Origin: a bacterium
GTDB taxonomy: Bacteria; Bacillota_I; Bacilli_A; RF39; UBA660
Assembly: GCA_029100545.1 (NCBI GenBank)
Contig: JAQXPH010000031.1
Span: forward strand, 6,267-70,266
DNA length: 64,000 bases
Direction: 5' to 3'
How positions within the stretch are numbered: position 1 is the stretch's first letter; each line of letters begins with the position of its first letter. Both the position numbers and the translations under genes were made by a program. This document shows positions 4,020 through 52,360 of the stretch, piece by piece. The notes under the pieces were generated by a model. That model was not told the DNA's origin and ran no database searches. It worked only from the letters and a program-made list of their open reading frames with translations.

Positions 4020-4043
4020 CCTCGCGAGAACCCTTTCGCGAGG
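4020..4043 (+). promoter_or_regulatory. GC-rich hairpin in the 3' flank of target gene 2 (cctcgcga ... tcgcgagg)
   Basis: This is a perfect 8-bp GC-rich inverted repeat that can be extended to about 10 bp around the loop ACCC. The same element occurs at 33774-33797 after target gene 1. No T-run follows it. Confidence 0.7.
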
Positions 4044-26659: not shown

Positions 26660-26673
26660 ATTTGCATAAAAAT

Positions 26674-28437
26674 ATGGAAGATCAAATTAATTTAAAAGAT
26701 TTATTTAAAACTGATAAAGATTTTGAAAAAGAATTAAAATCTTTAGAAAAAGAAACAAAAAAAATATTTTCTTATGAAGGACATATATTAGAAAGTCCTG
26801 AAAGTTTATATAATTTTTTAGCCTTTGATACATTAATTTCTAAAAGATTAGAAAGACTTTATTTATATGCTCATATAAATAATGATTTAGATTTAACTAA
26901 TCAAAAATATCAAGATTATTTAGGAAAAGTATTAAATTTAGCAAATAATATTAGTGAAAAATCCTCTTTTGTATTACCAGAATTATTAACAAAAGACTAT
27001 AGTGATATACTAAAAATGATAAAAAACTATCCTAAACTTAAAGAATATAAAAATAATTTAAAAGATATTTATCGTAATAAAAAAATAATTAAGAATAAAG
27101 ATGAAGAAAAAATTATTTCTATTTTAACATCAACTTATGATAAACCAGAAGATATATCAGAGTTTTTACTTACAACTGATTTAGATTATGGTTATATAAT
27201 AGATGAAAATGGTAAGAAAAATAAACTTACTTTATCAAATTTTAGTACTTATTTAGAAAGTAATAATGGTAATGTTAGAAAAGATGCTTTTGAAGGAATT
27301 TATAAAAATATTAAAGCATTTGAAAATACTTTTAATGCAATATTTACTTCCAAAATAATGGAAAATAATAAACTATCTAAAATAAGAGGTTTTGATAGTG
27401 CTCGTAAATTAAGTTTATATCAAAATAATATAAAAAATAATATATATGATAAATTAATTGAAGGAATTCATAAAAATTTAAATAAATTTTATAAATATTA
27501 TGATTTTAAAAAAGAAGTATTAAATATAAAAGACTTTCATATTTATGATACATATGCAAATATTACAAGCAATTTTAATAAAGATTTTTCTTTAGAAGAA
27601 GCAAAAAATATAATTATTTCATCATTAAGTATTTTAGGTAATGATTATATAGATATAATAAAAAAATCATTTTCTGATAACTGGATTTCATATTATCCTA
27701 AAAAGAATAAAAGAGATGGAGGATATTGTACATGTGCATATTTAGCCCATCCTTATATTGTAATAAATTATGAAAATAAACTTGAAGATGTTTCTACACT
27801 TGCTCATGAACTTGGCCATGCTATGCATTATTATTATGCTAAAGAAAATAATACTTATGAAGATTATAATTATTCAATTTTTGTAGCAGAAGTAGCAAGT
27901 CAAGTAAACGAAATAATACTTACAGATTATTTATTAAATAGTGCGGATAATATTGAAGAAAAAAAATATTTATTAGATAGTATTTTAAAAAGATTTAAAG
28001 CAACTATGATAAGACAAACTATGTTTGCTGAATTTGAAGATATTCTTCATAATAAAGAAAATGAAGGCATTATATTAACTAAAGATGTTGTTCAAAATAC
28101 ATATTATGATTTAAATAAATTATATTTTGGTGAAAATGTAATTATTGATGATTATATAAAATATGAATGTTATAGAATACCACATTTTTATTATAATTTT
28201 TATGTGTATCAATATGCTACTGGATATGCAGCAGCATTAAAAATAGCCCATGATATTATTAATAAAAAAGCAGGTGCTTTAGAAAAATATCGTAAATTTT
28301 TAACTCTTGGTTCAACACTTGATCCTGTAAAATCACTTGGTGTAGCGGGAGTTGATATGTTAGATGATAAATTATATGATGAAGTATTTACATATTTTGA
28401 TAATTACTTAAAGGAGTTGAAAAAATTATATGAGTAG
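26674..28437 (+). CDS. pepF: oligoendopeptidase F (M3B family)
   Basis: The zinc motif HELGHAMH is present, and the length and overall pattern are typical of PepF. The start is uncertain; the ORF is open from 26662. Confidence 0.85.
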   Translation: MEDQINLKDLFKTDKDFEKELKSLEKETKKIFSYEGHILESPESLYNFLAFDTLISKRLERLYLYAHINNDLDLTNQKYQDYLGKVLNLANNISEKSSFVLPELLTKDYSDILKMIKNYPKLKEYKNNLKDIYRNKKIIKNKDEEKIISILTSTYDKPEDISEFLLTTDLDYGYIIDENGKKNKLTLSNFSTYLESNNGNVRKDAFEGIYKNIKAFENTFNAIFTSKIMENNKLSKIRGFDSARKLSLYQNNIKNNIYDKLIEGIHKNLNKFYKYYDFKKEVLNIKDFHIYDTYANITSNFNKDFSLEEAKNIIISSLSILGNDYIDIIKKSFSDNWISYYPKKNKRDGGYCTCAYLAHPYIVINYENKLEDVSTLAHELGHAMHYYYAKENNTYEDYNYSIFVAEVASQVNEIILTDYLLNSADNIEEKKYLLDSILKRFKATMIRQTMFAEFEDILHNKENEGIILTKDVVQNTYYDLNKLYFGENVIIDDYIKYECYRIPHFYYNFYVYQYATGYAAALKIAHDIINKKAGALEKYRKFLTLGSTLDPVKSLGVAGVDMLDDKLYDEVFTYFDNYLKELKKLYE

Positions 28438-29807: not shown

Positions 29808-29837
29808 TTGACATATAATATTACTTTGTGGTATTAT
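29808..29837 (+). promoter_or_regulatory. candidate promoter of the paralogue/DGR-target operon
   Basis: TTGACA is followed about 18 nt later by TATTAT, which is preceded by TGg (extended -10). It lies about 30 nt upstream of the ATG at 29868. Confidence 0.45.
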
Positions 29838-29867
29838 TTTATTAGAGTAGAGAAAGGTATTTTTATT

Positions 29868-31556
29868 ATGAAATTAAAAGATATAATAATAAAAAATAAA
29901 TATAAATTATTAACAATTATAGGTGTTTTATTAACTTTTTCAATATTACTTGCAATATCTTATGCTTTTTTTGGAAGGGTTATAGAAAATACAAATACTA
30001 ATGCAATATCTGAAATAAATACATCTTATTATTCATTTACTGCAACAGGTGATATCAATATATCACTTACTTTAAATGAAGAATTATTAGGAGTTGAAAG
30101 TGCAAATAATACAGTTCCTGCGTTTACATCAAATGGTGGTAATTTAAATTTAAATTTAACTACTTTAGATAGTGCAAAAGATATTTCTTGTACTTATGAT
30201 ATTGTTTATGAACCAGTTGATGCTATAAATTCCTCAAACAATATAAATGAATTTACAATAGCAGGTGAGTCAACATCTGGTTTATCTTTTAATGAAACTA
30301 ATGTAGTAGGATCAAATCCAGTTATTCTTATATCTAATGCTTTAATTAAGACAAATGCATCTTCTTCACTTACAACATTAGATTCTTGGAATTTTACAAT
30401 TAATTTTTATAATTTAAATGCTATTCAAGATTATATTGTTGGTACAAATATAAGTGGTAATATTAAACTTGAAAATATTAATTGTGGATTCAATAGTAAT
30501 ATAGAGTATGGCTATGAAACTATTCTTACCCAAAATGGAGGAAAAACTGCAATAGAATCAAAAGGTACACCTAACTTTTTAACATATGAAAAAGGAGTAG
30601 TAGGAATGTATGCAGCAGAAGATGACCTTGGAACTTCTTATTACTTTAGAGGAAAAGTTAATAATAACTGGGTAAAATTTGGAAAATATATAAGTGATAT
30701 GTATTATAATTCAAGTGATAAGACATTATATAATGCATGCCCAGCTGGTGGGTCATGTACAAAGATAGCTTCCTCTGGGAATGAAATGTACTGGCGAATA
30801 ATAAGAATAAATGGTGATAATTCTATAAGAATGATTTATTCGGGAGTAACACCGCCATTAGAAACAAAACAATTTGTTATGGAAGATAACAATTATTCAA
30901 TAACAATTGGTTCGACTCCATTTAATACAAGCGGTGATAAATCAGAATATGCGGGATATATGTATACTTTAGGACAGCAACATGGAACAAGTACAGATAG
31001 TACAATAAAAACATATTTAGATAATTGGTATACATTTACAAATCTATCAACATATTATGCAAAAGATTTAATAGCAGATCAAATATATTGTAATGATAGG
31101 AATACATCAAGTACATGGGAATCAACACCCGCTGATATAATGGCTTATTCGTCTGGAGAAAGACTAAGCAATGGAACACCAAGTTTAAAATGTTCAATTA
31201 AAGAAGATAGATTTACGGTAAATGATGTAGTTAATGGCAATGGGAAATTAACCAATCCTGTAGGTTTAATAACGATTGATGAGTTGTTATATGCAGGTAC
31301 TAACCAAGAAAACGCAAATAGTGCATGTTATTTATATACCGGATCAAATTATTGGTCTGGTTCACCATTTGGATTTGTAAAAAGTTATGCTTTTACAAAT
31401 ATTATCAAAGAAGATGGAACTTTAAACGTCGATAGTGTTGAACAGAATATTGGAGTTCGCACAGTAATTTCTCTATCATCTAATGTTAAGTTATATGGTT
31501 CAGGGTTATATAGTAATCCATATGTTATTGAAAATCCAAATTTAGATGTCCAGTAG
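29868..31556 (+). CDS. non-diversified paralogue of the DGR-target family, a secreted or surface protein
   Basis: The signal-anchor segment ends in ISYAFFG. Family motifs are GTSYYFRG, YWRIIRINGDNSIRMIY, YCNDR, PVGLITIDELLYAG, NYWSGSP and GVRTVISL...GSGLYSNPYVI. The region equivalent to the VR is AT-rich. The ORF is open from TTG 29808. Confidence 0.8.
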   Translation: MKLKDIIIKNKYKLLTIIGVLLTFSILLAISYAFFGRVIENTNTNAISEINTSYYSFTATGDINISLTLNEELLGVESANNTVPAFTSNGGNLNLNLTTLDSAKDISCTYDIVYEPVDAINSSNNINEFTIAGESTSGLSFNETNVVGSNPVILISNALIKTNASSSLTTLDSWNFTINFYNLNAIQDYIVGTNISGNIKLENINCGFNSNIEYGYETILTQNGGKTAIESKGTPNFLTYEKGVVGMYAAEDDLGTSYYFRGKVNNNWVKFGKYISDMYYNSSDKTLYNACPAGGSCTKIASSGNEMYWRIIRINGDNSIRMIYSGVTPPLETKQFVMEDNNYSITIGSTPFNTSGDKSEYAGYMYTLGQQHGTSTDSTIKTYLDNWYTFTNLSTYYAKDLIADQIYCNDRNTSSTWESTPADIMAYSSGERLSNGTPSLKCSIKEDRFTVNDVVNGNGKLTNPVGLITIDELLYAGTNQENANSACYLYTGSNYWSGSPFGFVKSYAFTNIIKEDGTLNVDSVEQNIGVRTVISLSSNVKLYGSGLYSNPYVIENPNLDVQ

Positions 31557-31566
31557 AAAGGAATAT

Positions 31567-33732
31567 ATGAAAAATAGAAATATAATATTAAGTGTTATTG
31601 TTTTATTACTTATACTTTGTACAGGTATATCTGTTTCATATGCCTTTTTTAAAATATCTAAAAGTACTCAAGATCCAAATATTACAGTAAATATTGATAA
31701 TGTTCCAGCATGTGTTTCTCTTCAGATGACTAATACTAATATTGTTTCAATTACAAATGAATATGCAGTTCCTATAACAGATGCTAAAGCATTATCTTCC
31801 GATGTATATAAAACTTCTTTTGATGTTATTAATAATTGTGACTCTTCAAAAGATTTAACTATATTACTTGCTCCTACTAATAGTTCTACTATGCCAGTAA
31901 GTGCATTAAAATATGCTTTAGTAGAGCAAAGTGAAGTGCCTTCAAGCGGAACATTAATTTCAGATAAATTAGGTTTAAATAATGGGACAAAACTTGAACT
32001 TAAACAAAAATATAATCAAGATATATCAATAGGTTATAGTGTAGGTAATAAGACAGTACCCGCTAAAACGACTAAAAGTTATAATTTATATTTATGGATA
32101 GATGAAAATGAAGGTGGTCTTGGACAAAATATTACTATGAATAAGTTATTTGAAGGATATATTGTACTTGGTTCAGGTTCGTTAGGAACTCCGCCTACGC
32201 CACTATATGATACTATTCAAGCAAAATATAATGAAGGAAATACATTTGTAAAACTTTATGATGGAGAAGGATCAGATACTTATACAAACTCAGTATACTA
32301 TTATAATGGTGCTGTTGAAGATAATAATGTTTTATTTGCAAACTTTTGCTGGAAAATGGTTAGAACTACCGATACTGGAGGCGTTAAATTAATTTATAAT
32401 GGAACGCCAAAAACTATTTATGAATCTGTTAATCCATTAGAAGAATCACAATATCTAAATCTATCAAATGATGCAAACTATCCATATACATTTGATAGCA
32501 CTAATAAAACATGGACAAGTACAAATAAAACTAATAGTGCAACAGGTACAATAACATTTACTGTAGCAGAAGCAGGAGATTATATACTATCATATACTGT
32601 TTCTTCTGAAAAAAATTATGATAAAGCAATATTTTATAAAGATGGTACAAAGCTTGGCACTTACAGTGGTTCTGTAAGTGGAACAATTAATCTAGATGGT
32701 CTTACAACTTCAAATGTAATAAAAGTTGAATATACAAAAGATTCATCAGCAGCAAGTGGAAGTGATAATGTAGTCTTTAGTTTAGGTAAACCCTCTGGTA
32801 ATTCATATTTAACATGCAATAACACGGGAACTGATTCTCAAATAGGTACAAGTAAGTTTAATAGTAGTTATACTTCTCCTGCATATGTAGGTTATATGTA
32901 TAATACAGTGTATACGTATTCATCTAAATCAATGTCATCATTATCTAATATAGTATTTGGTAATTCATTTACATATTCAGGAGGAACGTATACACTCACT
33001 GATACAATGACAGTAGCAACATGGTCAAGTGGTTATAATACAATAAATAATAATCATTATACGTGTTTTACTACAGGTACTACCTGCCCATCTTTATATT
33101 ATGTATATTATACTAATTCTTCAACTGCATATTATATAACACTTACGGGTGGTAAATCTGTGGGTGATGCCTTAAATGAAATGCTATTTGCTGATGATGT
33201 AAATAAAACTGATTCTGCTATAAAAACATATATAGAAACTTGGTATGAAAATAATATGACAGCATATACATCATATCTAGAAGATACAACTTATTGCAAT
33301 GATCGAAGTATATTAAATTTAAATAGCTGGAATCCAAATGGAGGAGATGTAAGAAGTTATTTACAATTTAAAAATTATAATACAAATTATAGTTTAGTAT
33401 GTGGTAGTGTTACAGACCAGTTTAGAGTAGGAAATACAAAAGCACCACTAAAATATCCAGTAGGTTTACTTACAGCGCCAGAAGTATGGCTAGCTTATAA
33501 AGACGCAAGTTATAGTACATATTATTTAAATACAGGAAATCTTTATTGGCTTGGGTCCCCTTACGACTTCGACTACTATAGTGCAGTCGGGCGTAGCGTC
33601 GATAGTTCGGGTCTCATGAGCAACTACTACGTGAACGACTCTGGCGGGGCCCGGCTGGCCGTTTCCTTAAAACCTGGCACCGAGTATATTTCAGGAGATG
33701 GGACATATACTTCGCCATTTTTGATAGAATAA
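31567..33732 (+). CDS. DGR variable (target) protein, cassette-proximal, with VR1 at the C-terminus
   Basis: The ATG follows an AAAGGA RBS; an in-frame ATG at 31546 is an alternative start. The signal anchor ends in VSYAFF. The family motifs are present. The C-terminal GC-rich segment 33544-33667 matches the TR. Confidence 0.9.
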   Translation: MKNRNIILSVIVLLLILCTGISVSYAFFKISKSTQDPNITVNIDNVPACVSLQMTNTNIVSITNEYAVPITDAKALSSDVYKTSFDVINNCDSSKDLTILLAPTNSSTMPVSALKYALVEQSEVPSSGTLISDKLGLNNGTKLELKQKYNQDISIGYSVGNKTVPAKTTKSYNLYLWIDENEGGLGQNITMNKLFEGYIVLGSGSLGTPPTPLYDTIQAKYNEGNTFVKLYDGEGSDTYTNSVYYYNGAVEDNNVLFANFCWKMVRTTDTGGVKLIYNGTPKTIYESVNPLEESQYLNLSNDANYPYTFDSTNKTWTSTNKTNSATGTITFTVAEAGDYILSYTVSSEKNYDKAIFYKDGTKLGTYSGSVSGTINLDGLTTSNVIKVEYTKDSSAASGSDNVVFSLGKPSGNSYLTCNNTGTDSQIGTSKFNSSYTSPAYVGYMYNTVYTYSSKSMSSLSNIVFGNSFTYSGGTYTLTDTMTVATWSSGYNTINNNHYTCFTTGTTCPSLYYVYYTNSSTAYYITLTGGKSVGDALNEMLFADDVNKTDSAIKTYIETWYENNMTAYTSYLEDTTYCNDRSILNLNSWNPNGGDVRSYLQFKNYNTNYSLVCGSVTDQFRVGNTKAPLKYPVGLLTAPEVWLAYKDASYSTYYLNTGNLYWLGSPYDFDYYSAVGRSVDSSGLMSNYYVNDSGGARLAVSLKPGTEYISGDGTYTSPFLIE
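33544..33667 (+). repeat. DGR variable repeat VR1
   Basis: It is 124 nt and colinear with the TR. About 19 of about 21 mismatches sit at TR adenines, and 14 of the 16 TR AAY codons are altered. It encodes YWLGSPYDFDYYSAVGRSVDSSGLMSNYYVNDSGGARLAVS. Confidence 0.9.
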
Positions 33733-33773
33733 CGCAGTAATAAGTAGGGTGCCAACACTTTACACTAGAAAGT

Positions 33774-33797
33774 CCTCGCGAAAACCCTTTCGCGAGG
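33774..33797 (+). promoter_or_regulatory. GC-rich hairpin in the 3' flank of target gene 1 (cctcgcga(aa)-accc-(tt)tcgcgagg)
   Basis: It is an 8-10 bp GC-rich inverted repeat with a 4-nt loop, about 105 nt downstream of the VR1 end. It is the same as the element at 4020-4043. Confidence 0.7.
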
Positions 33798-33895
33798 CGC
33801 CGAAGTAAAAAAATAACGCTAAGATAAATAAGAGGGAAAAATATTGGGTTAAACATAAAGTTTAATCTAGGATTATGTCGTAATAAAAGTATAGC

Positions 33896-34019
33896 TTTTG
33901 GCTTGGGTCCCCTAACAACTTCAACAACAATAATGCTAACGGGCGTAACGTCAATAGTTCGGGTAACATGAGCAACAACAACGTGAACAACTCTAACGGG
34001 GCCCGGCTGACCATTTTCT
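33896..34019 (+). repeat. DGR template repeat (TR)
   Basis: It is intergenic and GC-rich relative to its surroundings. In the VR frame it reads FWLGSPNNFNNNNANGRNVNSSGNMSNNNVNNSNGARLTIF*, with 16 AAC/AAT codons. Its 3' end (ccattttc) differs from both VRs (ccgtttcc), as expected for IMH* versus IMH. Confidence 0.9.
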
Positions 34020-34193
34020 AATAATAATTTAATCTTTGCTAAATTTATAATATTTAATATTATGGTGAAATTTAGCATTTCATAATTGGAAACAGATATA
34101 ATTCTATGAACTTATGTTCTAAAAATATATGTAGTGTAGGCTATGCTAGTTATTTAATAATTAGCATAGCAATTTATTACTAAAGGATAAAGG

Positions 34194-34550
34194 ATGAATA
34201 GTAATAATGATTTTATTTTATTAAAAAGAGTTAATATATTTAATGATTATATTAATCAGTATGTTGTTTCATTAATACCAAGTGTTCATCGAGATATTAA
34301 AATACATTTGCTTGATGAAAGTTATAATTTACTTAAAAATTTATATGAAGCAATATATAATAAAGGCAATATTAGAAATAAATATATAATAGAACTACTT
34401 GTTTGTATTTCACTTATAGATGGTTTATTAGGTAGTATTATGAAATATAATAAAAATAAACATATTATTAAAGCTATTAATTTATTAACTGATATAAAAA
34501 ATATGACTTATGCATGGAAGGCAAATATTAGTGAAAAAGAAGATAAATAA
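34194..34550 (+). CDS. avd: Avd-like accessory variability determinant (four-helix-bundle protein)
   Basis: The protein is 118 aa, basic and predicted all-helical. Its pattern (...LIPSVHRDIKIHLLDES..LLKNLYEA ... ELLVCISLIDGLL ... LLTDIKNMTYAWK) resembles the four-helix-bundle family found next to DGR RTs. It lies immediately upstream of the RT and overlaps it. Confidence 0.75.
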   Translation: MNSNNDFILLKRVNIFNDYINQYVVSLIPSVHRDIKIHLLDESYNLLKNLYEAIYNKGNIRNKYIIELLVCISLIDGLLGSIMKYNKNKHIIKAINLLTDIKNMTYAWKANISEKEDK

Positions 34551-35997
34551 TATATATTATAAATATTTAACATTTGATAATTTATTAAATTGCTATAATA
34601 TTGTAAAAAAAACTTGTAAGAATAAAAAAGCAATTAATAGATTTGAAATGAATAAATATACTAATATTTATAATATATATAAATCTTTATATAATAAAAC
34701 TTATAAACCATATAAATATACATTATTTATGATATTTGAACCAAAACCAAGACTTGTTATGAGTCAAACTATATCTGATAAAATAGTAAATCATTTTGTA
34801 AGTAAATATTATTTAATACCTTTTTTATCTAATAAATTAATTTATAGTAATGTAGCAACTAGAATAAATAAAGGAACTAAACTTGCAAATAAATTAGTGA
34901 TTAAATATATAAATAATATAAGAATGAATAATAAATTTGAAAATATATATACTTTAAAAATTGATATAAGTAAATATTTTTATAATATTAATCATAAAAT
35001 ATTAATTAATTTATTAAAAAATGATTTTTTAGATAATGATGTAATTAATTTAATTAAAATTATACTTAATGAAACAAATAGTAATTATATAAATGAAAAA
35101 ATTAAAATATATAATCAAAAATATAAATGTGATATACCATTATATAAAAAAGATATTGGTTTAAGTATTGGAGCAATGTCAAGCCAGTTTCTTGCAATTT
35201 ATTATTTAAATAAATTAGATCACTATATAAAAGAAATACTTAATTGTAAATATTATATTAGATATATGGATGATTTTATTATACTAAGTAATAATAAAAA
35301 TTATTTAAAATATGTTTTTAAAAAAATAGAAAAACAAATTAATTATTTTGATTTAAAAGTTAATCCTAAAAGTAATATATATAATTTAAAATATGGAATA
35401 AATTTTTTAGAATATAGATATAAAATAATTAATAATAAGTTTTATATATTATATAAAAAAGGAAATATAAAAAGAATTAATAATAAATTAAAATTTTTAA
35501 AGAAATATGATTTATTAAAATATTATAAATCAAAAGCAAGTTATAATGGATATTTAAAAATAAGTGAAAAGGAATTTAAAATGAAAAGTATTGAAAAATA
35601 TGATTATTATAAAAATAATAATAAAAATGTAATAATATTTATAAAAGAGGGAGTTTTTTATAAAACCTATAATAATGATGCAATTATTATGTGGAATTTA
35701 TTTAAATATAAAATAAATAATAATAATTTATCATTTAGTATAAATACAAAAGATAAAGTTTTTAATTATTTAAATGAATTAAATATAGGTTATTTAGTTA
35801 TAGGTAATGATAATATTTATGTAAAAGGAAATGATGAAGTTTATAATTTATATAATAAGTTATCTAATATTTATTATGATAAATATAATAAAATAAGTAA
35901 GTTAAATGAATTAGTTGATAATTTATTAAATAAAGATATAAATAATTATGAAATTATATTAAATTTTTTAAATAAATTAAAAAAGGAAGTATTATGA
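34510..35997 (+). CDS. DGR-type reverse transcriptase with a C-terminal MutS-domain-I-like extension
   Basis: RT motifs are FEPKPRLVMSQTISDKIV, ATRINKGTKLA and KIDISKYFYNINH. The DGR-hallmark motif 4 is IGAMSSQ and the catalytic box is YIRYMDDFIIL. The start may be GTG 34531 rather than ATG 34510. The C-terminal ~140 aa lie beyond the RT core. Confidence 0.9.
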   Translation: MHGRQILVKKKINNIYYKYLTFDNLLNCYNIVKKTCKNKKAINRFEMNKYTNIYNIYKSLYNKTYKPYKYTLFMIFEPKPRLVMSQTISDKIVNHFVSKYYLIPFLSNKLIYSNVATRINKGTKLANKLVIKYINNIRMNNKFENIYTLKIDISKYFYNINHKILINLLKNDFLDNDVINLIKIILNETNSNYINEKIKIYNQKYKCDIPLYKKDIGLSIGAMSSQFLAIYYLNKLDHYIKEILNCKYYIRYMDDFIILSNNKNYLKYVFKKIEKQINYFDLKVNPKSNIYNLKYGINFLEYRYKIINNKFYILYKKGNIKRINNKLKFLKKYDLLKYYKSKASYNGYLKISEKEFKMKSIEKYDYYKNNNKNVIIFIKEGVFYKTYNNDAIIMWNLFKYKINNNNLSFSINTKDKVFNYLNELNIGYLVIGNDNIYVKGNDEVYNLYNKLSNIYYDKYNKISKLNELVDNLLNKDINNYEIILNFLNKLKKEVL

Positions 35998-36857
35998 AAG
36001 AAATTAATAATTTTGAAGAATATCTTAAATATGAACTTAATTATTCAGATTATACTATTAAAGAATATATTTTACATGTAAAAGATTTTTTAAAATATTT
36101 AGAAAATAATAAAATAAATTATTTAAATATTAATAAAGAAGATATTATAAAATATTTAAAATATTTAGATAATGAAAAATTATCAAATAGAAGTATTGGA
36201 ACAATACTTTCTAGTTTAAGATGTTTTTATAATTATTTACTTGATAATGGTTTTGTTAAAGTAAATATATTTAAACTTATTAGTAATCCTAAAATGGATA
36301 AAAAACTACCTAATTTTTTATCATATGAAGACTTGCAAAAAATACTTGATAGTATTACAGATAAAGATGTTTTATCTTTAAGAAATAAAATGATTATAGA
36401 ACTTTTATATGCCACTGGAATAAGAGTTAGTGAACTAATTAATATTAAAATAAGTGATATTGATTTTAATAATAAAACTATTAAAGTAATGGGTAAAGGT
36501 AAAAAAGAAAGAATTGTCTTTTTTGGAGATTATGCTTTAGATGCAATAAATATTTATTTAAAAAATAATCCTTATAATAATGAGTATTTAGTTTTAAATA
36601 GTAAAGGAGAAAAAATTACTGTTAGGGGAGTAGAACTTATTATTGAAAAAATAAGTAAAATGGCATGTATTAATAATAATGCTCATCCTCATACATTTCG
36701 TCATACTTTTGCTACTCATATGCTTAATAATGGTTGCCCACTTAAAAGTGTTCAAGAATATTTAGGCCATAGTTCATTATCTTCTACTGAAGTATATACT
36801 CATATAACTAATGATTATATTAAAGAAGAATATTTAAAAAATATACCTAGAAAATAG
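35994..36857 (+). CDS. tyrosine site-specific recombinase, XerC/XerD-like
   Basis: The ATGA start/stop overlaps the RT. The N-terminal core-binding domain is followed by catalytic residues in ATGIRVSEL, GKGKKER, HPHTFRHTFATHML and LGHSSLSSTEVYTH. Confidence 0.85.
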   Translation: MKEINNFEEYLKYELNYSDYTIKEYILHVKDFLKYLENNKINYLNINKEDIIKYLKYLDNEKLSNRSIGTILSSLRCFYNYLLDNGFVKVNIFKLISNPKMDKKLPNFLSYEDLQKILDSITDKDVLSLRNKMIIELLYATGIRVSELINIKISDIDFNNKTIKVMGKGKKERIVFFGDYALDAINIYLKNNPYNNEYLVLNSKGEKITVRGVELIIEKISKMACINNNAHPHTFRHTFATHMLNNGCPLKSVQEYLGHSSLSSTEVYTHITNDYIKEEYLKNIPRK

Positions 36858-38451: not shown

Positions 38452-38703
38452 GTGATAAAATTGAAAATGGATAATAAATTTTGGGGAAAAGTAAAAAATA
38501 AAACAAAAGTTGATAAAGAAACAATAATTAGTCTTGCTAAAAAACTCCAAAATGGAAATATGAAAGATGAAACAACTATTAGAGAGGTAATTGATACACT
38601 TTCTAGCATAACAGGAAAAAGTGTAAGTGAAGAAAAAAAACAAAAAATAGTAGATAAAATAGTTAATGATAAAGTGCCTAATAATGTCGATAAAATGTTT
38701 TAA
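38452..38703 (+). CDS. small SpoVIF-like sporulation protein
   Basis: The 83-aa protein contains LAKKLQNGNMKDETTIREVIDTLSSITGKSVSEEKKQKIVDKIV, which resembles stage VI sporulation protein F as I recall it. Confidence 0.45.
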   Translation: MIKLKMDNKFWGKVKNKTKVDKETIISLAKKLQNGNMKDETTIREVIDTLSSITGKSVSEEKKQKIVDKIVNDKVPNNVDKMF

Positions 38704-39998
38704 TTATACTTTAAATATTTATTAATATAAAAATAGTTTAATGATACTACTACAATAATATTTATTATTTCTGAAATTAAAAGTGAATATATTCCAATTT
38801 TAAAAAATGATAAAAATGTTAGACAAATAAGTTTTATAACTGAGGCAAGTATTGTTATCTTTAACGTTATTTTTGCTTTACCAATCGCTTGCATAAATGA
38901 AGCAAATACACTTTCAAAATAAAAAAGTATAAAAACAGGTGCTAAATATTTTATATAATTTGTTCCTAATGTAGTTTTATATAAAAGCATTAATAATTCA
39001 TTTCTAAATATAAATATTATAAAACTAGATGTTAAACCAATTAAAAATGTAAAGATTAAAGCTTCTTTTAATCTTTTTTTTACGTAATAAATATTTCTAT
39101 TTTCAATATATTTTGATATTTCTGGAAGTAGGGCAAGTGATATAGCACTTATAAAAAAAGATGGTATAGTAAGTGTCGAAATAGCATAAGCATTATAAGC
39201 TCCATATTCAGTTAAAATAAAACTATTTGAATAACCTTTAAATAATAAAATATTTGTAAGAATTATTGGTTCAAAAAAATAACATATATTTCCGATTAAT
39301 TTACTTGTAACACTTGGAATTGATAAATTTAAAATATCTTTAGCACTATTTTTAGAAAAACTAAAATTAAACATATTTTTTAAGACATTTTTATTAATAC
39401 AAAAAGAAAAAGTTAAAATTGATGCAGCTTCAGTAAAAAGATATGTTAACATTAAACCAACTGCCGCATGAACATAAGATATTTTTATTAATTTTGAAAT
39501 TACTGTAAGTATTAATGTAAGTCTTATTAATTGTTCAATTGTATTTGAAAGAACATGTGGATAGTTTTTTTGAATACCATAAAAATAACCTTTGAAAATG
39601 CATGCTATAGAAGAAAATGGTAATGTTAAACTCATTGCTATAAGAAGGTAATATGCTTTAGGTTCTTTTAATAAAGTATTTGCTATAAAATGACTTACTA
39701 AAAACATTAATAAGATTAAAAAAATATTTAATATTATAATAATAATTAAAGCACTGCTAAGTGTTTTTTTATCATTTTTTTGAGCTATTAATTTAGCAAT
39801 TGTACTTGGCATAGCAAGATTAGATATTGTTAATAAAAGTGAATAAGTAGGCATTACAATTGAATATAGACTTATTGTAGTAGATCCAACTATTCTTGTA
39901 AAAATAACTTTAATTATTAAGCCTAATACTTTAGTAGATAATCCACTTAACATTAGAATAAATGTTGAAGTTAAAAATTTATTTTTAAATATTTTCAT
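38700..39998 (-). CDS. MOP-superfamily flippase, SpoVB/MurJ-like
   Basis: It has about 12-14 TM segments and an N-terminus typical of the polysaccharide-biosynthesis/SpoVB family. Its position upstream of comN-like and relA matches Bacillus synteny. Confidence 0.65.
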   Translation of the reverse strand: MKIFKNKFLTSTFILMLSGLSTKVLGLIIKVIFTRIVGSTTISLYSIVMPTYSLLLTISNLAMPSTIAKLIAQKNDKKTLSSALIIIIILNIFLILLMFLVSHFIANTLLKEPKAYYLLIAMSLTLPFSSIACIFKGYFYGIQKNYPHVLSNTIEQLIRLTLILTVISKLIKISYVHAAVGLMLTYLFTEAASILTFSFCINKNVLKNMFNFSFSKNSAKDILNLSIPSVTSKLIGNICYFFEPIILTNILLFKGYSNSFILTEYGAYNAYAISTLTIPSFFISAISLALLPEISKYIENRNIYYVKKRLKEALIFTFLIGLTSSFIIFIFRNELLMLLYKTTLGTNYIKYLAPVFILFYFESVFASFMQAIGKAKITLKITILASVIKLICLTFLSFFKIGIYSLLISEIINIIVVVSLNYFYINKYLKYN

Positions 39999-42910: not shown

Positions 42911-43540
42911 ATGAATTTAATAATACCTTTTGAAAAGAAAGTTAAATTTGACACACCTATAAGTGAAATATGTAGTATATCACTTGAACATGAAATAACA
43001 AAAAATGATAGTGAAATTTTAGGTAATTTTTTAATAACTGGTACTTATAAAGAACATGAATTAAGTGTAAATAAAACAGATTTTAATTTTACTCTTCCTT
43101 TTTCAGTAGAACTAACTACTAGAGTAGATTTATCCTCACTTGATATGTCTATTGATAATTTTACATATGATTTAAATGGAAGTGATTTAGATATTAAAAT
43201 AGATTATGTAATTGAAGCACAAGAATTAAAAGAAGAACCTATTTTTGAAAGAGTAGAGGAAGAAAGTGAACCAATTACTTTAATCGAAGAAAAAGAAGAA
43301 ATAACAAATAATGTAGTTAATGATAATGAAGAAAGAGAAATAAAAAGTGAAACAATTATTAATAGTGTAAAAGCTGAAGATGACTATATTTCATATCATA
43401 TTCATATTGTTTCAAGTGGCGAATCATTAGAAAGTATTGCTTTAAAATATCATATTACAAAAGAAGAAATAGAAAATATTAATAATATTACCTCTATTAC
43501 TGAAAATGATAAATTACTTATTCCTTTAGAAAATGAATAG
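42911..43540 (+). CDS. SpoVID-like spore morphogenetic protein (SPOCS-like N-terminus, C-terminal LysM)
   Basis: The N-terminus SEICSISLEHEI...LGNFLITGTYK parallels SpoVID. An acidic linker follows, and the C-terminal LysM reads YHIHIVSSGESLESIALKYHITKEEIENIN. Confidence 0.55.
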   Translation: MNLIIPFEKKVKFDTPISEICSISLEHEITKNDSEILGNFLITGTYKEHELSVNKTDFNFTLPFSVELTTRVDLSSLDMSIDNFTYDLNGSDLDIKIDYVIEAQELKEEPIFERVEEESEPITLIEEKEEITNNVVNDNEEREIKSETIINSVKAEDDYISYHIHIVSSGESLESIALKYHITKEEIENINNITSITENDKLLIPLENE

Positions 43541-44426
43541 TTTAGCATATATAAAAAGTGTATATAAACCATTTAGAATTACCAAAAATAAAAATGTTAC
43601 AATAGTTGAATCAACGGAAGGTAAATTTGTTTTAAAAAAGGAAAATAAAGATTTATATACACTTTTTAATTATTTAGAAAAAAGAGGTTTTACATCCTTT
43701 CCTAAACTTGTTAAAAATTTTCGTGATGAAGATAATCTATTTGAATATGTAAATGAAGATGTAATATTTAATGAACAAAAACTAATGGATTTATCAGATG
43801 TATTAAGTAGTTTACATAATAAAACAGTTTATTTTAAAGAAACAAATATTGATAGTTTTAAAGAAATATATGAAAATATTGATAATAACATTAAATATCT
43901 AAGTAACTATTATAATACTATTTTTTTAAAAAATTTAAATGAAGAATATCAAAGTCCAAGTAATTATTTATATTCAAGAAATTATTTTAAGCTTCGGGAA
44001 GCATTAAACTTTTGTAAAAATGAACTTGATAATTGGTATTCTTTAGTAAGTGAAAAAGAAAAAGTAAGAGTAAGTGTTGTTCATAATAATTTAGCTATGG
44101 ATCATTTTATTGAAAATAGAGATAATTCTGTTTTAGTTAGTTGGGATAATTATAAAATAGATACACCAGTACTAGACTTTGTAAATTTATATCATAATGA
44201 ATATTTAAATTATGATTTTTCTTCCTTTTTAGAAAATTATTTAAATACTTTTGAACTTCTTGAAGAAGAAAAAAAATTATTATTCATTTTAATAAGTTTA
44301 CCTAAATTTGATATTATTGAAGGAACTGAATTTGAAAAAACAAAAAAAATTCATGAAAATATTTTATACTTATATAAAACAGAAAAATTAATCAGACCAT
44401 ATTATATGGATAATGACAACAACTAA
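43533..44426 (+). CDS. CotS/YsxE-like spore coat protein (kinase-like fold)
   Basis: It lies directly after the spoVID-like gene, as ysxE does in Bacillus. The motif VVHNNLAMDHF resembles the phosphotransferase catalytic loop. Confidence 0.45.
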   Translation: MNSLAYIKSVYKPFRITKNKNVTIVESTEGKFVLKKENKDLYTLFNYLEKRGFTSFPKLVKNFRDEDNLFEYVNEDVIFNEQKLMDLSDVLSSLHNKTVYFKETNIDSFKEIYENIDNNIKYLSNYYNTIFLKNLNEEYQSPSNYLYSRNYFKLREALNFCKNELDNWYSLVSEKEKVRVSVVHNNLAMDHFIENRDNSVLVSWDNYKIDTPVLDFVNLYHNEYLNYDFSSFLENYLNTFELLEEEKKLLFILISLPKFDIIEGTEFEKTKKIHENILYLYKTEKLIRPYYMDNDNN

Positions 44427-46534: not shown

Positions 46535-47037
46535 AACTAAATAATAAAGGTATATCTATTATAGAACTAATTATAAGTATTTCGTTAATAAGTGTTGTAA
46601 TGCTATTTTTATATAATTTACTATCTAATGTAACTTTTGAAAAAGATGATGATTATTTTGCTTCATTAAATCAAGCAAATAGAATTGAAATAATTAGTAA
46701 TATTGAAGATACTTTAATGTGTTATTCAATTAATAGTTATGAAATAAAAGGTGATAATGAATTAAAACTTAAGTATGCAGATAATGAATCATTTATTGTA
46801 AATATAGATCGAACTAATAATAAAGTTTCTTTTAATAAAGGAACGACTACTATAGGAAAATGGACTATAAAAAATGCAAGTATTGGTGAAATAACATGTA
46901 ATGATGTAGGCGATGGAATAGTAACTACAAAGTATACTCAATGTACTATTCCAATTTATACTACAAATATTAACGATATAGAAAATAATAATAACACTAT
47001 TGATGATATAACTTTTACTTTTAAAAAAGAAGTATAA
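46531..47037 (+). CDS. prepilin-type N-terminal cleavage/methylation domain protein (pseudopilin)
   Basis: The ATGA start overlaps the upstream gene. The N-terminus is MKLNNKG|ISIIELIISISL, with Glu at +5. Confidence 0.75.
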   Translation: MKLNNKGISIIELIISISLISVVMLFLYNLLSNVTFEKDDDYFASLNQANRIEIISNIEDTLMCYSINSYEIKGDNELKLKYADNESFIVNIDRTNNKVSFNKGTTTIGKWTIKNASIGEITCNDVGDGIVTTKYTQCTIPIYTTNINDIENNNNTIDDITFTFKKEV

Positions 47038-47890
47038 TAATTCCTAAAATAATTATTATTATTCTTGATAAATAAAAATATTTATAATTAATATTATAGT
47101 TTTCTAAAATTAGACTTAATTGCATTTGAATACTTAAACCACAAAAACAAATTATAGTATATGCTATAATTTGTTTTAATTTAATAGAAATATTTAATAA
47201 AGAAATACTATATAACCCTTGAGTTATTTCTATAATACCTTTTAAAATTGTTGTTAATGTGTTTTGTGAATTAAAAAATATTAAATCTGTTATAGTTTTA
47301 AAGAAAATAATTATACCCATTATTTTTAATAGATTTAATAAAGTATTATTAATAATTTTAAATAATTCTTTTTTTATATTATACTTTTCATATTTTATTT
47401 CAATATTTTTAATAGATAATTTATTTCTAATAAATAAATAATAACCTATGTTTATAATATAAATTAATAACATAAGAAAAATAACTTTTTTATTATTATT
47501 TAAAATAATAAATAAACTATTATATAAAAAAAGTGGATTATTAAAACAAGTAAAAGATAGTATTATACTTGCATCTTTTTCATTTATAATATTATTATCT
47601 AAATAATTTTTAATAATTATAGCATTAATTGGAGAACCTGATAAAATTGACATAATTATTATATAAATTTCTGGTCTTTTAAAAACTTTATTTAAATAAT
47701 ATGGTAAATTACATTTAATTAGTAAATTATTTAAAATCATCATAATAAATAAAAATGGAAATACTTTTGTAATAAATAAATTAAGTGATTCATTTATTGA
47801 ATTTAGAAATAAATAATTATTTTTAAAAATTAAAAAAATTATAAAAAAAATAATTGTAATTAATAATATATTTATATTTTTTTTGTTCAT
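47021..47890 (-). CDS. YlbJ-like sporulation integral membrane protein (nucleoside-recognition-domain type)
   Basis: It is a polytopic membrane protein with the N-terminal pattern SLNLFITKVFPFLFIMMIL. It lies divergent from the ylbL-like gene, as in Bacillus. Confidence 0.5.
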   Translation of the reverse strand: MNKKNINILLITIIFFIIFLIFKNNYLFLNSINESLNLFITKVFPFLFIMMILNNLLIKCNLPYYLNKVFKRPEIYIIIMSILSGSPINAIIIKNYLDNNIINEKDASIILSFTCFNNPLFLYNSLFIILNNNKKVIFLMLLIYIINIGYYLFIRNKLSIKNIEIKYEKYNIKKELFKIINNTLLNLLKIMGIIIFFKTITDLIFFNSQNTLTTILKGIIEITQGLYSISLLNISIKLKQIIAYTIICFCGLSIQMQLSLILENYNINYKYFYLSRIIIIILGIIILLF

Positions 47891-49834: not shown

Positions 49835-52360
49835 ATGAAAAGATGTGAAGTAGATAGAAATAAATTGAGTCCAATGATGGCTCAATATATGGAAATTAAA
49901 GATAAATATCCTGATACATTATTATTTTATCGTTTAGGAGATTTTTATGAACTTTTTTTTGAAGATGCTTTAATTGCCTCAAAAGAACTGGAGTTAACTT
50001 TAACTGGTAGAGTAGCGGGACTTGATGAAAGAGTCCCTATGTGTGGTGTTCCATATCATGCTGTAAAAAGTTATATTGAAAAAGTAGTAAATAAAGGATA
50101 TAAAGTTGCAATTTGTGAGCAACTTGAAGATCCAAGATTTACTAAAAAAATGGTAAAAAGGGGAGTTACAGATGTAATTAGTAAAGGAACAATTGCTGAT
50201 TTAGAACTTCTTGATTCTCATAATAATTCATTTGTGGCATCATTATTAGAATATCCTGATCTATATATTTTAACAATGCTTGATATTTCTACAGGTAGTT
50301 TATTAAGTAATAAAATTTTAAAAAATGTTAATACTTTAGGTAATCAAATAGTTAAATATCAAATAAAAGAAATTGTTTTAAAAGATAATACTAATGCTAA
50401 TTTAATTAATGAATTAAAAAATAAATATAATGTTGATATTGATATTTGTCCGTATGAATTAGATAAAATTAATTCATTAATTGAAAATAAACTTTCTGAT
50501 GTAAGATGTGTAATTGGTGTAAAACATTTATTTTATTTTTTAATAAACACTCAACTTAAAGATTTATCTTCAATTGAGGATATTACTATTATTAATAATC
50601 AAGATTATTTATATATGGATGATTATTGTATAAATAATTTAGAATTAGTTCAAACACAAAGAAATAAATCTCGTGAGTTTTCACTATTATGGCTTTTAGA
50701 TAAATGTAGAACTGCTATGGGAAGTAGAAAACTTAGAAATATGCTTCTTAATCCTTTAAAAGATAAAGAACTTATTAATAAACGTTATGATATGATTGAA
50801 AAATTTAATAATGAATTTATTTTAAAAGATAAACTTATTACTAATTTAAATGAAATATATGATATAGAACGATTAACAGGAAAAATTACTAATGGTAGTT
50901 TAAATGCAAGAGATTTATTACAATTAAAAAGAAGCTTAAAACCACTTCCTGAAATTAAAGAAATAATAGATAAATTAAATTTTAATATTGAAATTGATAC
51001 ATTTGAAGACATATATAATTTACTTGAAAAAGCAATATATGAAGATCCACCAATAACACTTAAAGATGGTTATTTAATTAAAGATGGCTATAATAATGAT
51101 TTAGATGATTTAAGAAATATTAAAAAAAATGGTAAAGATTATATTGCAAAATTTGAATATGAAATTAAAGAAAAAACAGGAATAAAAAATCTTAAAGTTG
51201 GTTTTAATAAAGTTTTTGGTTATTATATTGAAATAAGTAAAGGACAAGCAAAAGATGTTGCTGAAAAATTTGGCTTTGAAAGAAGACAAACATTGGCTAA
51301 TTGTGAAAGATTTATTTCAAAAGAATTAAAGGAAAAGGAAGATCTTATATTAAATGCTGAAGAAAGAATAATTGATTTAGAATATGAACTTTTTATGGAA
51401 ATTAAAAAAGAAATAAAAAAATATGTTCCAAAACTTAGAAATACATCAGATAGTTTAAGTTATATTGATGTTATGAGTAACTTAGCAAATCTAGCTGAAA
51501 ATTTAAATCTAGTAAGACCACTTATTAATGATAATCACACAATTGATATAACAAGTGGTTGGCATCCTGTTGTTAAAAATACTTTAAAAGATGAATATGT
51601 GGAAAATGATTGTAAAATGGATGAAAAAACTTCAACATTATTAATAACAGGCCCAAATATGAGTGGTAAATCAACTTATATGAGACAAATTGCTATAACA
51701 ATTATTATGGCTCAAATAGGTTCTTTTGTACCTTGTAAGAAAGCTAGCCTTCCTATTATAGATAAAATATTTACTAGAATTGGTGCATCTGATGATTTAG
51801 CTGGTGGTCAAAGTACATTTATGGTAGAAATGAGTGAAGCAAACAATGCTATAAAAAATGCCACTGAAAATAGTTTGATTTTATTTGATGAATTAGGTCG
51901 TGGTACGGCAACTTATGATGGTATGGCTCTTGCTCAAAGTATAATTGAATATATTAATGAGAATATTAAATGTAAGACTCTTTTTTCAACTCATTATCAT
52001 GAACTTACTATTTTGGATAGAAAATATAATTCAATTAAAAATGTTCATGTAGATGCATCATTAAATGGCAAAGAATTGATATTTTTGCACAAAGTAAAAA
52101 ATGGTTCAATAGATAAAAGTTATGGAGTTCATGTCGCTTTTTTAGCAGGACTTCCAGATAAATTAATTGAAAGAGCTAATGAAATATTAAATACATTAGA
52201 AAATAAGTCTAATAATAAATGCTCATCAACTCAATTATCTTTTGATTTTGATGAAAAAAAAGAAGAGAAAAAAGATTATTTAAAAGATATTGATATAAAT
52301 AATATTACACCAATTGAAGCATTAAATATTCTTTATAAAATAAAAGAAGATAATAAATAA
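49835..52360 (+). CDS. mutS: DNA mismatch repair protein MutS
   Basis: Domain I carries GDFYELFFEDA, Walker A is GPNMSGKST, and STFMVEMSE and DELGRGT are present. Confidence 0.97.
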   Translation: MKRCEVDRNKLSPMMAQYMEIKDKYPDTLLFYRLGDFYELFFEDALIASKELELTLTGRVAGLDERVPMCGVPYHAVKSYIEKVVNKGYKVAICEQLEDPRFTKKMVKRGVTDVISKGTIADLELLDSHNNSFVASLLEYPDLYILTMLDISTGSLLSNKILKNVNTLGNQIVKYQIKEIVLKDNTNANLINELKNKYNVDIDICPYELDKINSLIENKLSDVRCVIGVKHLFYFLINTQLKDLSSIEDITIINNQDYLYMDDYCINNLELVQTQRNKSREFSLLWLLDKCRTAMGSRKLRNMLLNPLKDKELINKRYDMIEKFNNEFILKDKLITNLNEIYDIERLTGKITNGSLNARDLLQLKRSLKPLPEIKEIIDKLNFNIEIDTFEDIYNLLEKAIYEDPPITLKDGYLIKDGYNNDLDDLRNIKKNGKDYIAKFEYEIKEKTGIKNLKVGFNKVFGYYIEISKGQAKDVAEKFGFERRQTLANCERFISKELKEKEDLILNAEERIIDLEYELFMEIKKEIKKYVPKLRNTSDSLSYIDVMSNLANLAENLNLVRPLINDNHTIDITSGWHPVVKNTLKDEYVENDCKMDEKTSTLLITGPNMSGKSTYMRQIAITIIMAQIGSFVPCKKASLPIIDKIFTRIGASDDLAGGQSTFMVEMSEANNAIKNATENSLILFDELGRGTATYDGMALAQSIIEYINENIKCKTLFSTHYHELTILDRKYNSIKNVHVDASLNGKELIFLHKVKNGSIDKSYGVHVAFLAGLPDKLIERANEILNTLENKSNNKCSSTQLSFDFDEKKEEKKDYLKDIDINNITPIEALNILYKIKEDNK

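Follow-up and report, generated by a model that had tools for sequence, protein, structure and literature searches.

Does an intergenic repeat, lying between the 3' end of one gene and a small open reading frame (ORF) followed by a reverse transcriptase (RT) gene, mark a complete diversity-generating retroelement (DGR) in a bacterial chromosome, or does it have a more ordinary origin? This question is raised by a 64-kb stretch of DNA from a bacterium of the lineage UBA660 (GenBank assembly GCA_029100545.1, contig JAQXPH010000031.1, positions 6,267 to 70,266), which we call the window and in which all coordinates below are counted. An initial annotation made from the letters alone had placed a template repeat (TR), a variable repeat (VR), a small Avd-like gene and a DGR-type RT here, and our computational follow-up recovered all four where they had been put, give or take 2 nt. 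We are highly confident that the locus is a bona fide, complete chromosomal DGR with the parts described below, of a type that combines an Avd-like protein with an RT-fused version of the accessory protein Msl. The host is a very AT-rich (23% G+C) gut Firmicute in which the DGR has long resided at a housekeeping locus.

An adenine-biased pair of repeats

The TR (33898-34021; like all other features of the element, on the + strand) contains 39 adenines and matches, without gaps, VR1 (33546-33669) at the 3' end of the gene upstream of it, which we call target gene 1. In the best ungapped register, at an offset of 352 nt, 102 of 124 bases are identical, so the intergenic repeat is the near-copy of the upstream gene's 3' end that it had been taken for; a scan over 161 nt gave 111 matches at this offset (runner-up offset, 61). 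The 22 mismatches coincide with a TR adenine in 20 cases (11 A>G, 8 A>T and 1 A>C), meaning that 20 of 39 TR adenines were changed as opposed to 2 of 85 other bases (Fisher p=1.8e-10), and the changed adenines are first or second codon bases in the reading frame of the target. Had the gene's 3' end merely undergone an ordinary partial duplication next to an unrelated retron or group II RT, mismatches spread evenly over the four bases would be expected. The concentration at TR adenines refutes this reading, to which we assign practically no probability.

The only two non-adenine differences of VR1 from the TR lie within or beside its end, which resembles a site for the initiation of mutagenic homing (IMH; last 21 nt, 33646-33666, GGGGCCCGGCTGGCCGTTTCC). 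Its counterpart in the TR, IMH* (33998-34018), reads GGGGCCCGGCTGACCATTTTC. Both ends share a GC-rich stretch of 13 identical nucleotides (GGGGCCCGGCTG-CC), after which the VR continues with GTTTCC and the TR with ATTTTC. Judged by sequence, the locus thus appears to possess the IMH at the VR end and the diverged IMH* at the TR end by which a DGR is recognized. The VR and TR segments have a G+C content of 40-50%, compared with 23.3% for the whole window.

By the standard rule for DGRs, each AAC or AAT (AAY) codon can be converted into codons for 15 amino acids and never into a stop codon. The TR contains 16 AAY codons, which at 15 amino acids each give about 6.6e18 possible peptides. In a comparison of five homologous proteins, variation affected each of the 20 VR codons whose first or second base is an adenine in the TR and only 4 of the 18 other VR codons, and we take this variability as an indirect sign, read from aligned sequences, of DGR activity in the lineage. 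A 95%-identical strain (locus L089) was left out of the VR comparison because its contig begins after the target gene and its TR was collapsed by the assembly. Of 88 related loci put through a simple scan for A-biased repeats, 40 contain a TR/VR pair of this kind. In one more distant relative (L013:4251-5900), VR and RT are separated by a tandem series of several TR-like copies, all of which end in the same GGCGTTCGCCCAATTTCC block.

A reverse transcriptase of the DGR type

The RT gene (34510-35997) encodes 495 aa if counted from the ATG at 34510, with an RT domain that ends near aa 350. Translation probably begins at the GTG at 34531 instead, which gives the 488-aa product found in the database and fits the N-termini of homologues. 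Both annotated motifs are present (counted from the ATG, IGAMSSQ occupies aa 220-226 and YMDD aa 252-255), and profile searches gave matches to RVT_1 (E=2.8e-13) and MutS_I (22.9 bits, cut-off 20.6) in Pfam as well as to PHROG 1423 (E=3.9e-65). Its best relative of solved structure is the RT of the Bordetella phage DGR (bRT, 8ub7; E=1.2e-19), with the IGxxxSQ and YMDD blocks aligned, followed at a distance of 13 orders of magnitude in E-value by group II and retron-type RTs (about 1e-6).

The best NCBIfam matches are, by name, group II and retron models and would as such suit a duplicated gene end beside an unrelated RT, but their scores stay far below the cut-offs (80.9 with a cut-off of 300 for group II, TIGR04416, and 40.7 with a cut-off of 235 for retron St85). 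Rfam returned nothing in 33650-34300 at gathering or permissive thresholds, including no group II intron or retron RNA. From these comparisons the RT would not group with retron or group II enzymes, as the initial annotation had predicted.

The RT matches more than 1,296 database proteins, and the best 120 of these are nearly all 485-515 aa long, so the C-terminal extension described below is a trait of the family. This family comprises more than 100 clusters at 90% identity with proteins of about 490-500 aa; it is large and barely described, and its members have Msl fused to the enzyme.

A MutS-like module at the C-terminus of the reverse transcriptase

The last part of the RT (aa 352-495, nt 35563-35994) consists of a MutS-domain-I-like module and a helical hairpin. 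A structural model of this part has a predicted local distance difference test (pLDDT) score of 94.6, and the best 50 Foldseek matches to it in the PDB are all domain I of MutS/MSH proteins, with a root mean square deviation (rmsd) of 1.4-1.8 Å over about 70-80 residues; a profile of the module aligns to residues 13-56 of E. coli MutS. As modeled, the C-terminus of the RT is a MutS domain I fold and a fused version of Msl. In MutS proteins, a Phe of domain I stacks on the mismatched base. Within the module's GxFYK motif (here GVFYK), this Phe is nearly invariant and the position of the Glu is Lys throughout the family, so that the Phe-X-Glu mismatch-recognition motif is absent from the module, whereas the host's own MutS has GDFYE.

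A profile of the module matched 903 clusters, and most of the best 150 are proteins of 130-145 aa in which the module stands alone. They are equivalent to Msl, the accessory protein described by Wu et al. 2018 in a study that also mentions three RTs weakly matching MutS_I. These stand-alone proteins start at the invariant Met of the fusion joint FKMK (RT aa 356-359, nt about 35575-35586), which suggests either that the fusion arose by read-through or that an internal start may additionally yield free Msl. In Bacteroides, where some DGRs encode Msl, DGR output rises 5- to 10-fold when mutS is deleted (bioRxiv 10.1101/2024.11.15.621889). By analogy, it is a reasonable reading that the MutS-I module shields the heteroduplex of complementary DNA (cDNA) and VR from repair.

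The accessory gene and the structured RNA around the template repeat

A 118-aa ORF (34194-34550) overlaps the start of the RT gene and is basic as described (pI 9.1). Its initial designation as Avd-like agrees well with its size, charge and position and less well with its sequence. The PHROG family "Avd protein of DGR" matches the ORF weakly (E=2.5e-3 over aa 6-117) and is matched by 3 of 8 orthologues; a profile of the eight orthologues found no Avd among PDB sequences, only noise, and the single sequence likewise produced noise. The gene is present at the same place in all close relatives with 117-124 aa, and 8 orthologues have a pI of 9.0-9.5, compared with 9.5 +/- 0.7 for Avd proteins (Wu et al. 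2018). We therefore treat it as a putative avd gene based on a weak sequence match together with size, charge and conserved position. The order TR-avd-RT, which had been put forward as a known DGR layout, is that of all close relatives; the text of Wu et al. 2018 did not confirm it as one of the named architectures.

The 170 nt between the TR and avd are conserved among relatives, even at RT identities of only 50-64%. RNAalifold and a covariance model describe a structured, Sp-like RNA 3' of the TR (34033-34186), for which an alignment of 8 loci gave 39 pairs, 14 of them with compensatory changes. The covariance model built from these loci recovers the element in loci outside its seed (L009 with 93.7 bits, L002/L003 with 45.3 bits). 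From 5' to 3', the RNA comprises a covarying stem-loop P1 just after the TR (34038-34076), a conserved GAAACA (34089-34094), the directly adjoining strand GATATAATTCTA of a long-range duplex (34095-34106), a short stem-loop plus A-run (34107-34125) and a long, covarying hairpin P3 (34131-34180). The partner strand of the duplex, TAGGATTATGTC (33868-33879), is complementary at 12 of 12 positions and lies on the other side of the TR, where it forms, together with a small hairpin (33846-33867), a 5' flank of the DGR RNA (33846-33879) whose motif is kept in all close relatives. An unbiased search of the 420 nt upstream in ten loci found the same conserved motif every time, with 11-12 of 12 positions paired with the duplex strand. 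Seven of the 12 pairs of the duplex are changed on both sides and 99% are paired, the latter being an inflated value since the instances were partly found by searching for complementarity. A promoter scan showed no enrichment over shuffled sequences.

The ribonucleoprotein (RNP) of phage BPP-1 is built on a plan in which a "cPRT Stop" duplex flanks the TR next to a stem-loop and adenosines and an Avd-binding stem-loop follows just after the TR, and the same RNA plan was predicted in 207 of 278 DGRs (bioRxiv 10.1101/2023.10.23.563531). Compared with the text of that paper, the predicted RNA around the TR described here matches the published plan.

A hairpin downstream of each variable repeat

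Target-side hairpin 1 (33774-33797; CCTCGCG-AAAACCCTTT-CGCGAGG) lies 42 nt past the stop codon of target gene 1 and 108 nt past the IMH. Target-side hairpin 2 (4020-4043; CCTCGCGAGAACCCTTTCGCGAGG) is found 30 kb away downstream of a second target gene (see below), 109 nt past its IMH, and the hairpin sequence common to both targets, CCTCGCG-A(A/G)AACCCTTT-CGCGAGG, is located beyond the stop codon. Because the remote second target has one too, the hairpin is a part of the target rather than of the TR transcript. Relatives have the same hairpin core with different complementary arms between VR and TR. In 11 instances, which were gathered by requiring complementary arms, the core is kept, and 6 of 10 stem pairs are changed on both sides while none is broken; the hairpins of relatives are already visible in the unfiltered sequence, and the copy in L006 is degraded. 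No T-run follows hairpin 1 on the + strand, and a terminator-like prediction was obtained on the minus strand only.

Homing of the BPP-1 DGR needs a hairpin downstream of the VR, and hairpins of this phage type have a GC-rich stem of 7-10 bp with a GRNA tetraloop, 4-34 bp after the VR (Guo et al. 2011). The hairpin described here departs from this consensus both in its loop or core, AAAACCCTTT (ACCC if the A-T pairs form), and in its distance of 108-109 nt from the IMH. We infer by analogy that it may be a lineage-specific form of the BPP-1 homing hairpin.

Target genes, and whether the element is a relic

Target gene 1 (31546-33732) encodes 728 aa with an N-terminal hydrophobic segment, which suggests a membrane-anchored surface protein, and a C-terminal domain that appears to be DUF6273-like (C-type-lectin-like) and contains VR1 at aa 668-708. 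An AlphaFold2 (AF2) model of the last 209 aa (aa 520-728) has a pLDDT of 86, and its Foldseek matches are weak throughout: the IgA peptidase of T. ramosa with its N-terminal DUF6273 domain at E=0.02, DUF6273 proteins of a viral library at about 0.06, and CD23 C-type lectin domains at about 0.6 and worse. Pfam DUF6273 is matched by 14 of 42 target homologues and not by the target 1 protein of the window itself, which likewise found no match among PDB sequences. Target homologues of the metagenome collection are mostly incomplete, on contigs about 1-2 kb long. The hypervariable VR and the TR/VR repeat are probable break points of assemblies, and the target family may therefore be under-counted in surveys.

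Directly upstream of target gene 1 lies a partner gene (29808-31556), a non-variable paralogue with 33% identity over about 180 aa of the C-terminal fold region, in which a search of the window found no match to the TR. The partner gene likewise precedes the target in L002 and L085. An ORF at 3-1649 was considered as a second partner gene and rejected, since it encodes PNPase.

Target gene 2 (1731-3977; 748 aa) is located 30 kb upstream, and its product shares 85% identity with target 1 across its C-terminal 513 aa. Its variable repeat, VR2 (3788-3914, with an IMH-like end at 3891-3911), was found by searching the window for TR matches at non-adenine positions only. It differs from the TR by 24 mismatches, 18 at TR adenines and 6 at other bases, plus a 3-nt insertion. 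As full-length homing would erase non-adenine differences, VR2 may no longer be renewed, may be renewed in part, or may be served by a TR outside the window, and the gene as a whole shows signs of decay. The coexistence of a well-matched and a decayed target in one genome amounts to a natural test of the homing competence of a VR.

A decayed target also invites the reading that the whole element is a relic, that is, a real DGR by descent that is inactive in this genome, with TR/VR differences that record past activity. Besides the substitutions and the insertion in VR2, this reading could draw on the drift of the RT gene to 13.0% G+C (avd and RT are both below their neighbors) and on the 95%-identical strain, in which the RT is split into two ORFs of 281 aa and 138 aa (the latter with the MutS_I match) and the TR is about 33 nt shorter (L089:731-2184). 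We nevertheless consider it unlikely for the element as a whole. In the window, the RT ORF is uninterrupted and retains every catalytic motif, and many of its columns are invariant across relatives at 49-64% identity. Compensatory changes have maintained the RNA helices and the hairpin, and avd has been maintained as well; the non-adenine differences of VR1 from the TR number only 2 and are confined to the IMH-like end and its immediate surroundings, and homologous VRs differ at every codon with a TR adenine.

Chromosomal setting and relatives

The element is flanked by dnaJ upstream and tig downstream, and every flanking gene that was scanned is a housekeeping gene: PNPase, miaB-like, recD2 and rpsD, then hrcA-grpE-dnaK-pepF-dnaJ before the element, and xerC/D-like, tig, relA and dtd, then mutS, rnc and smc after it. 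Many gut DGRs are phage-borne (Roux 2021), and a tyrosine recombinase gene (xerC/D-like, 35994-36857) overlaps the RT stop codon, which together with the lower G+C content of avd and RT would be compatible with an integrated prophage or another mobile element. Several lines of evidence make this origin very improbable. The ORFs scanned over the 64-kb window contain no match to a capsid, tail, terminase or any other phage family. The recombinase matches XerC and XerD with 293 and 276 bits and was rejected as a member of the cassette by synteny, given that in the closest relative it stays with tig, five genes away from the RT.

A collection of phage records was also searched with the RT. The nearest RTs came from FP_Lagaffe, ANMV-1 and Bordetella phages, which are known DGR carriers, and from phage nd12, with at most 33% identity. 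None of the RTs in this collection is a close or full-length match, and none covers 80% of the RT or its C-terminal 160 aa. A DGR has been described in phage nd12 (PMC10743442).

The closest relative (L085; RT 64% identical) has the order partner-target-TR-avd-RT, followed by five YhcG genes and then xerC-tig; these genes (L085:8675-12091) are tandem, partly degraded YhcG/DUF1016 nuclease paralogues. In other relatives, the cassette follows lepA-hemW (in a lepA/hemW/dnaK neighborhood) or the same pair of acyl-CoA ligase and kinase genes. The order VR-hairpin-TR-RNA-avd-RT is identical in L002, L005-L008, L085, L087 and L088. Since the locus is syntenic in relatives, the DGR can be regarded as an old resident of this chromosomal region, and the cellular, non-phage setting that the initial annotation had proposed is borne out by flanks, gene content and synteny alike.

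Its description of the host as sporulating stands in part. A SpoVIF match beside tig in the 95%-identical strain speaks for it, and the corresponding gene of the window (38452-38703) is SpoVIF-like by synteny with that strain. The SpoVB-, YsxE- and YlbJ-like matches (among 38700-39998 on the minus strand, 43533-44426, and 47021-47890 on the minus strand) are all below curated cut-offs. Such sporulation-type genes fit a divergent spore-former and are no proof of one.

The host mutS gene (49835-52360, + strand), encoding MutS domains I, III, IV and V, lies 14 kb downstream of the DGR and is followed by a polysaccharide deacetylase gene and not by mutL. The pepF gene (oligoendopeptidase F, 26662-28437), between dnaK and dnaJ and overlapping the dnaJ start, is an unusual insertion in the hrcA-grpE-dnaK-dnaJ operon. 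The YlbJ-like membrane protein gene (47021-47890) has a G+C content of 12.3%, and the first 200 nt of the xerC-like gene of about 11.5%.

Proposed mechanism and significance

If the parts function as their counterparts elsewhere, a transcript would run from about 33846 to about 34186 and fold such that the TR is enclosed by the 12-bp duplex (33868-33879 with 34095-34106). The stem-loops 3' of the TR would be binding sites for the Avd-like protein and the RT, cDNA synthesis would be primed, and the RT would copy the TR into cDNA while misincorporating opposite template adenines. This cDNA would replace VR1 in target gene 1 and would do the same, now or formerly, at VR2 30 kb away, with homing guided by the IMH-like VR end and by the conserved hairpin about 108 nt downstream. 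In this way, up to 16 AAY codons could be recoded in the ligand-binding face of the DUF6273/C-type-lectin-like domain of what is probably a membrane-anchored surface protein. The RT would carry in cis, as its MutS-I module, what other DGRs have as separate Msl, and the module would most likely bind the mismatch-rich cDNA:VR heteroduplex and keep the host's MutS from reverting it.

A more specific version of the last steps is a tentative proposal that we consider possible though rather doubtful. It holds that the RT-fused MutS-I module is an anti-repair device acting in cis, which would be delivered by the RT, engage mismatches of the cDNA:VR heteroduplex through its conserved Phe, have Lys in place of the catalytic-signaling Glu and block host MutS, and that the hairpin about 108 nt past the VRs serves as a lineage-specific homing signal read by the RNP. 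If this is true, a widespread gut RT family would offer a compact natural genetic handle on the escape of DGRs from mismatch repair.

Several observations weigh against parts of this overall picture. Hairpin and duplex instances were in part retrieved via their complementarity, so their fractions of paired positions come out too high. Neither the loop of the hairpin nor its spacing from the VR is that of the characterized phage type, and the role of the hairpin is proposed by analogy. The Lys in the place of Glu may mean that mismatch recognition by the module is altered or absent. The homology of the small basic protein to Avd is weak, with a marginal PHROG match and no Avd retrieved from the PDB by the orthologue profile, and so is the match of the predicted target fold, for which Foldseek E-values are at least 0.02 and the target 1 protein lacks a Pfam DUF6273 match. 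VR2, with its 6 non-adenine differences and codon insertion, may have lost its activity, or the TR that serves it may lie beyond the window. The split RT of the 95%-identical strain could be an assembly error, such as a collapse between TR and VR, or a case of decay.

Chromosomal DGRs of gut Firmicutes were already known, and the general picture remains unchanged by this one. The locus is an unusually clean example in which the parts of the published machinery can be located to the nucleotide and those made of RNA are backed by covariation. Since host MutS suppresses DGR output, a module that has kept the Phe and swapped the Glu would lend itself to testing how DGRs get around mismatch repair and could also serve engineered DGR mutagenesis.

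Comparison with known systems

The prototype of these elements, the DGR of Bordetella phage BPP-1 (mtd-avd-TR-brt), shares with the DGR described here the adenine-specific transfer from TR to VR, an RT with I/LGxxxSQ and YMDD motifs, a small basic accessory protein, an IMH-like GC-rich VR end and a hairpin downstream of the VR. In both, the TR appears to be enclosed by a duplex of upstream and downstream RNA strands that is followed by a short stem-loop and adenosines, and the VR occupies the C-terminal part of a domain that is lectin-like in BPP-1 and, by weak fold matches, putatively so here. The BPP-1 element is phage-borne, whereas this one is cellular and has two targets. Its gene order is TR-avd-RT, and hence the structured RNA 3' of the TR is found between TR and avd; its RT is 160 aa longer and includes the MutS-I module; and its hairpin follows about 108 nt after the IMH with AAAACCCTTT as core instead of 4-34 bp after the VR with a GRNA tetraloop.

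Targets with DUF6273 and a C-type-lectin-like fold are also known from the DGRs of phages nd4/nd12 and of Faecalibacterium phages (PMC10743442). Those targets are phage receptor-binding proteins, whereas the target here appears to be a cellular protein with an N-terminal membrane anchor, and the RTs of these phages are only 33% identical to ours and have no MutS-I extension.

With regard to the module itself, MutS domain I of E. coli and of the host has the same fold as modeled and the same G-x-F-Y motif with the stacking Phe. The RT module differs from MutS in comprising domain I only, without clamp or ATPase, in the conserved Lys that replaces Glu, and in a helical hairpin in the place of domain II.

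In composition, the element resembles the Msl-containing DGRs (Architecture D of Wu et al. 2018; Legionella and Bacteroides Bfr/Bth/Bun), which combine Avd with a MutS-domain-I-like factor, as this one appears to do. The module described here aligns end to end with stand-alone Msl-like proteins of about 135 aa, and the difference is that Msl is a separate protein in those DGRs and is fused to the C-terminus of the RT in this one.

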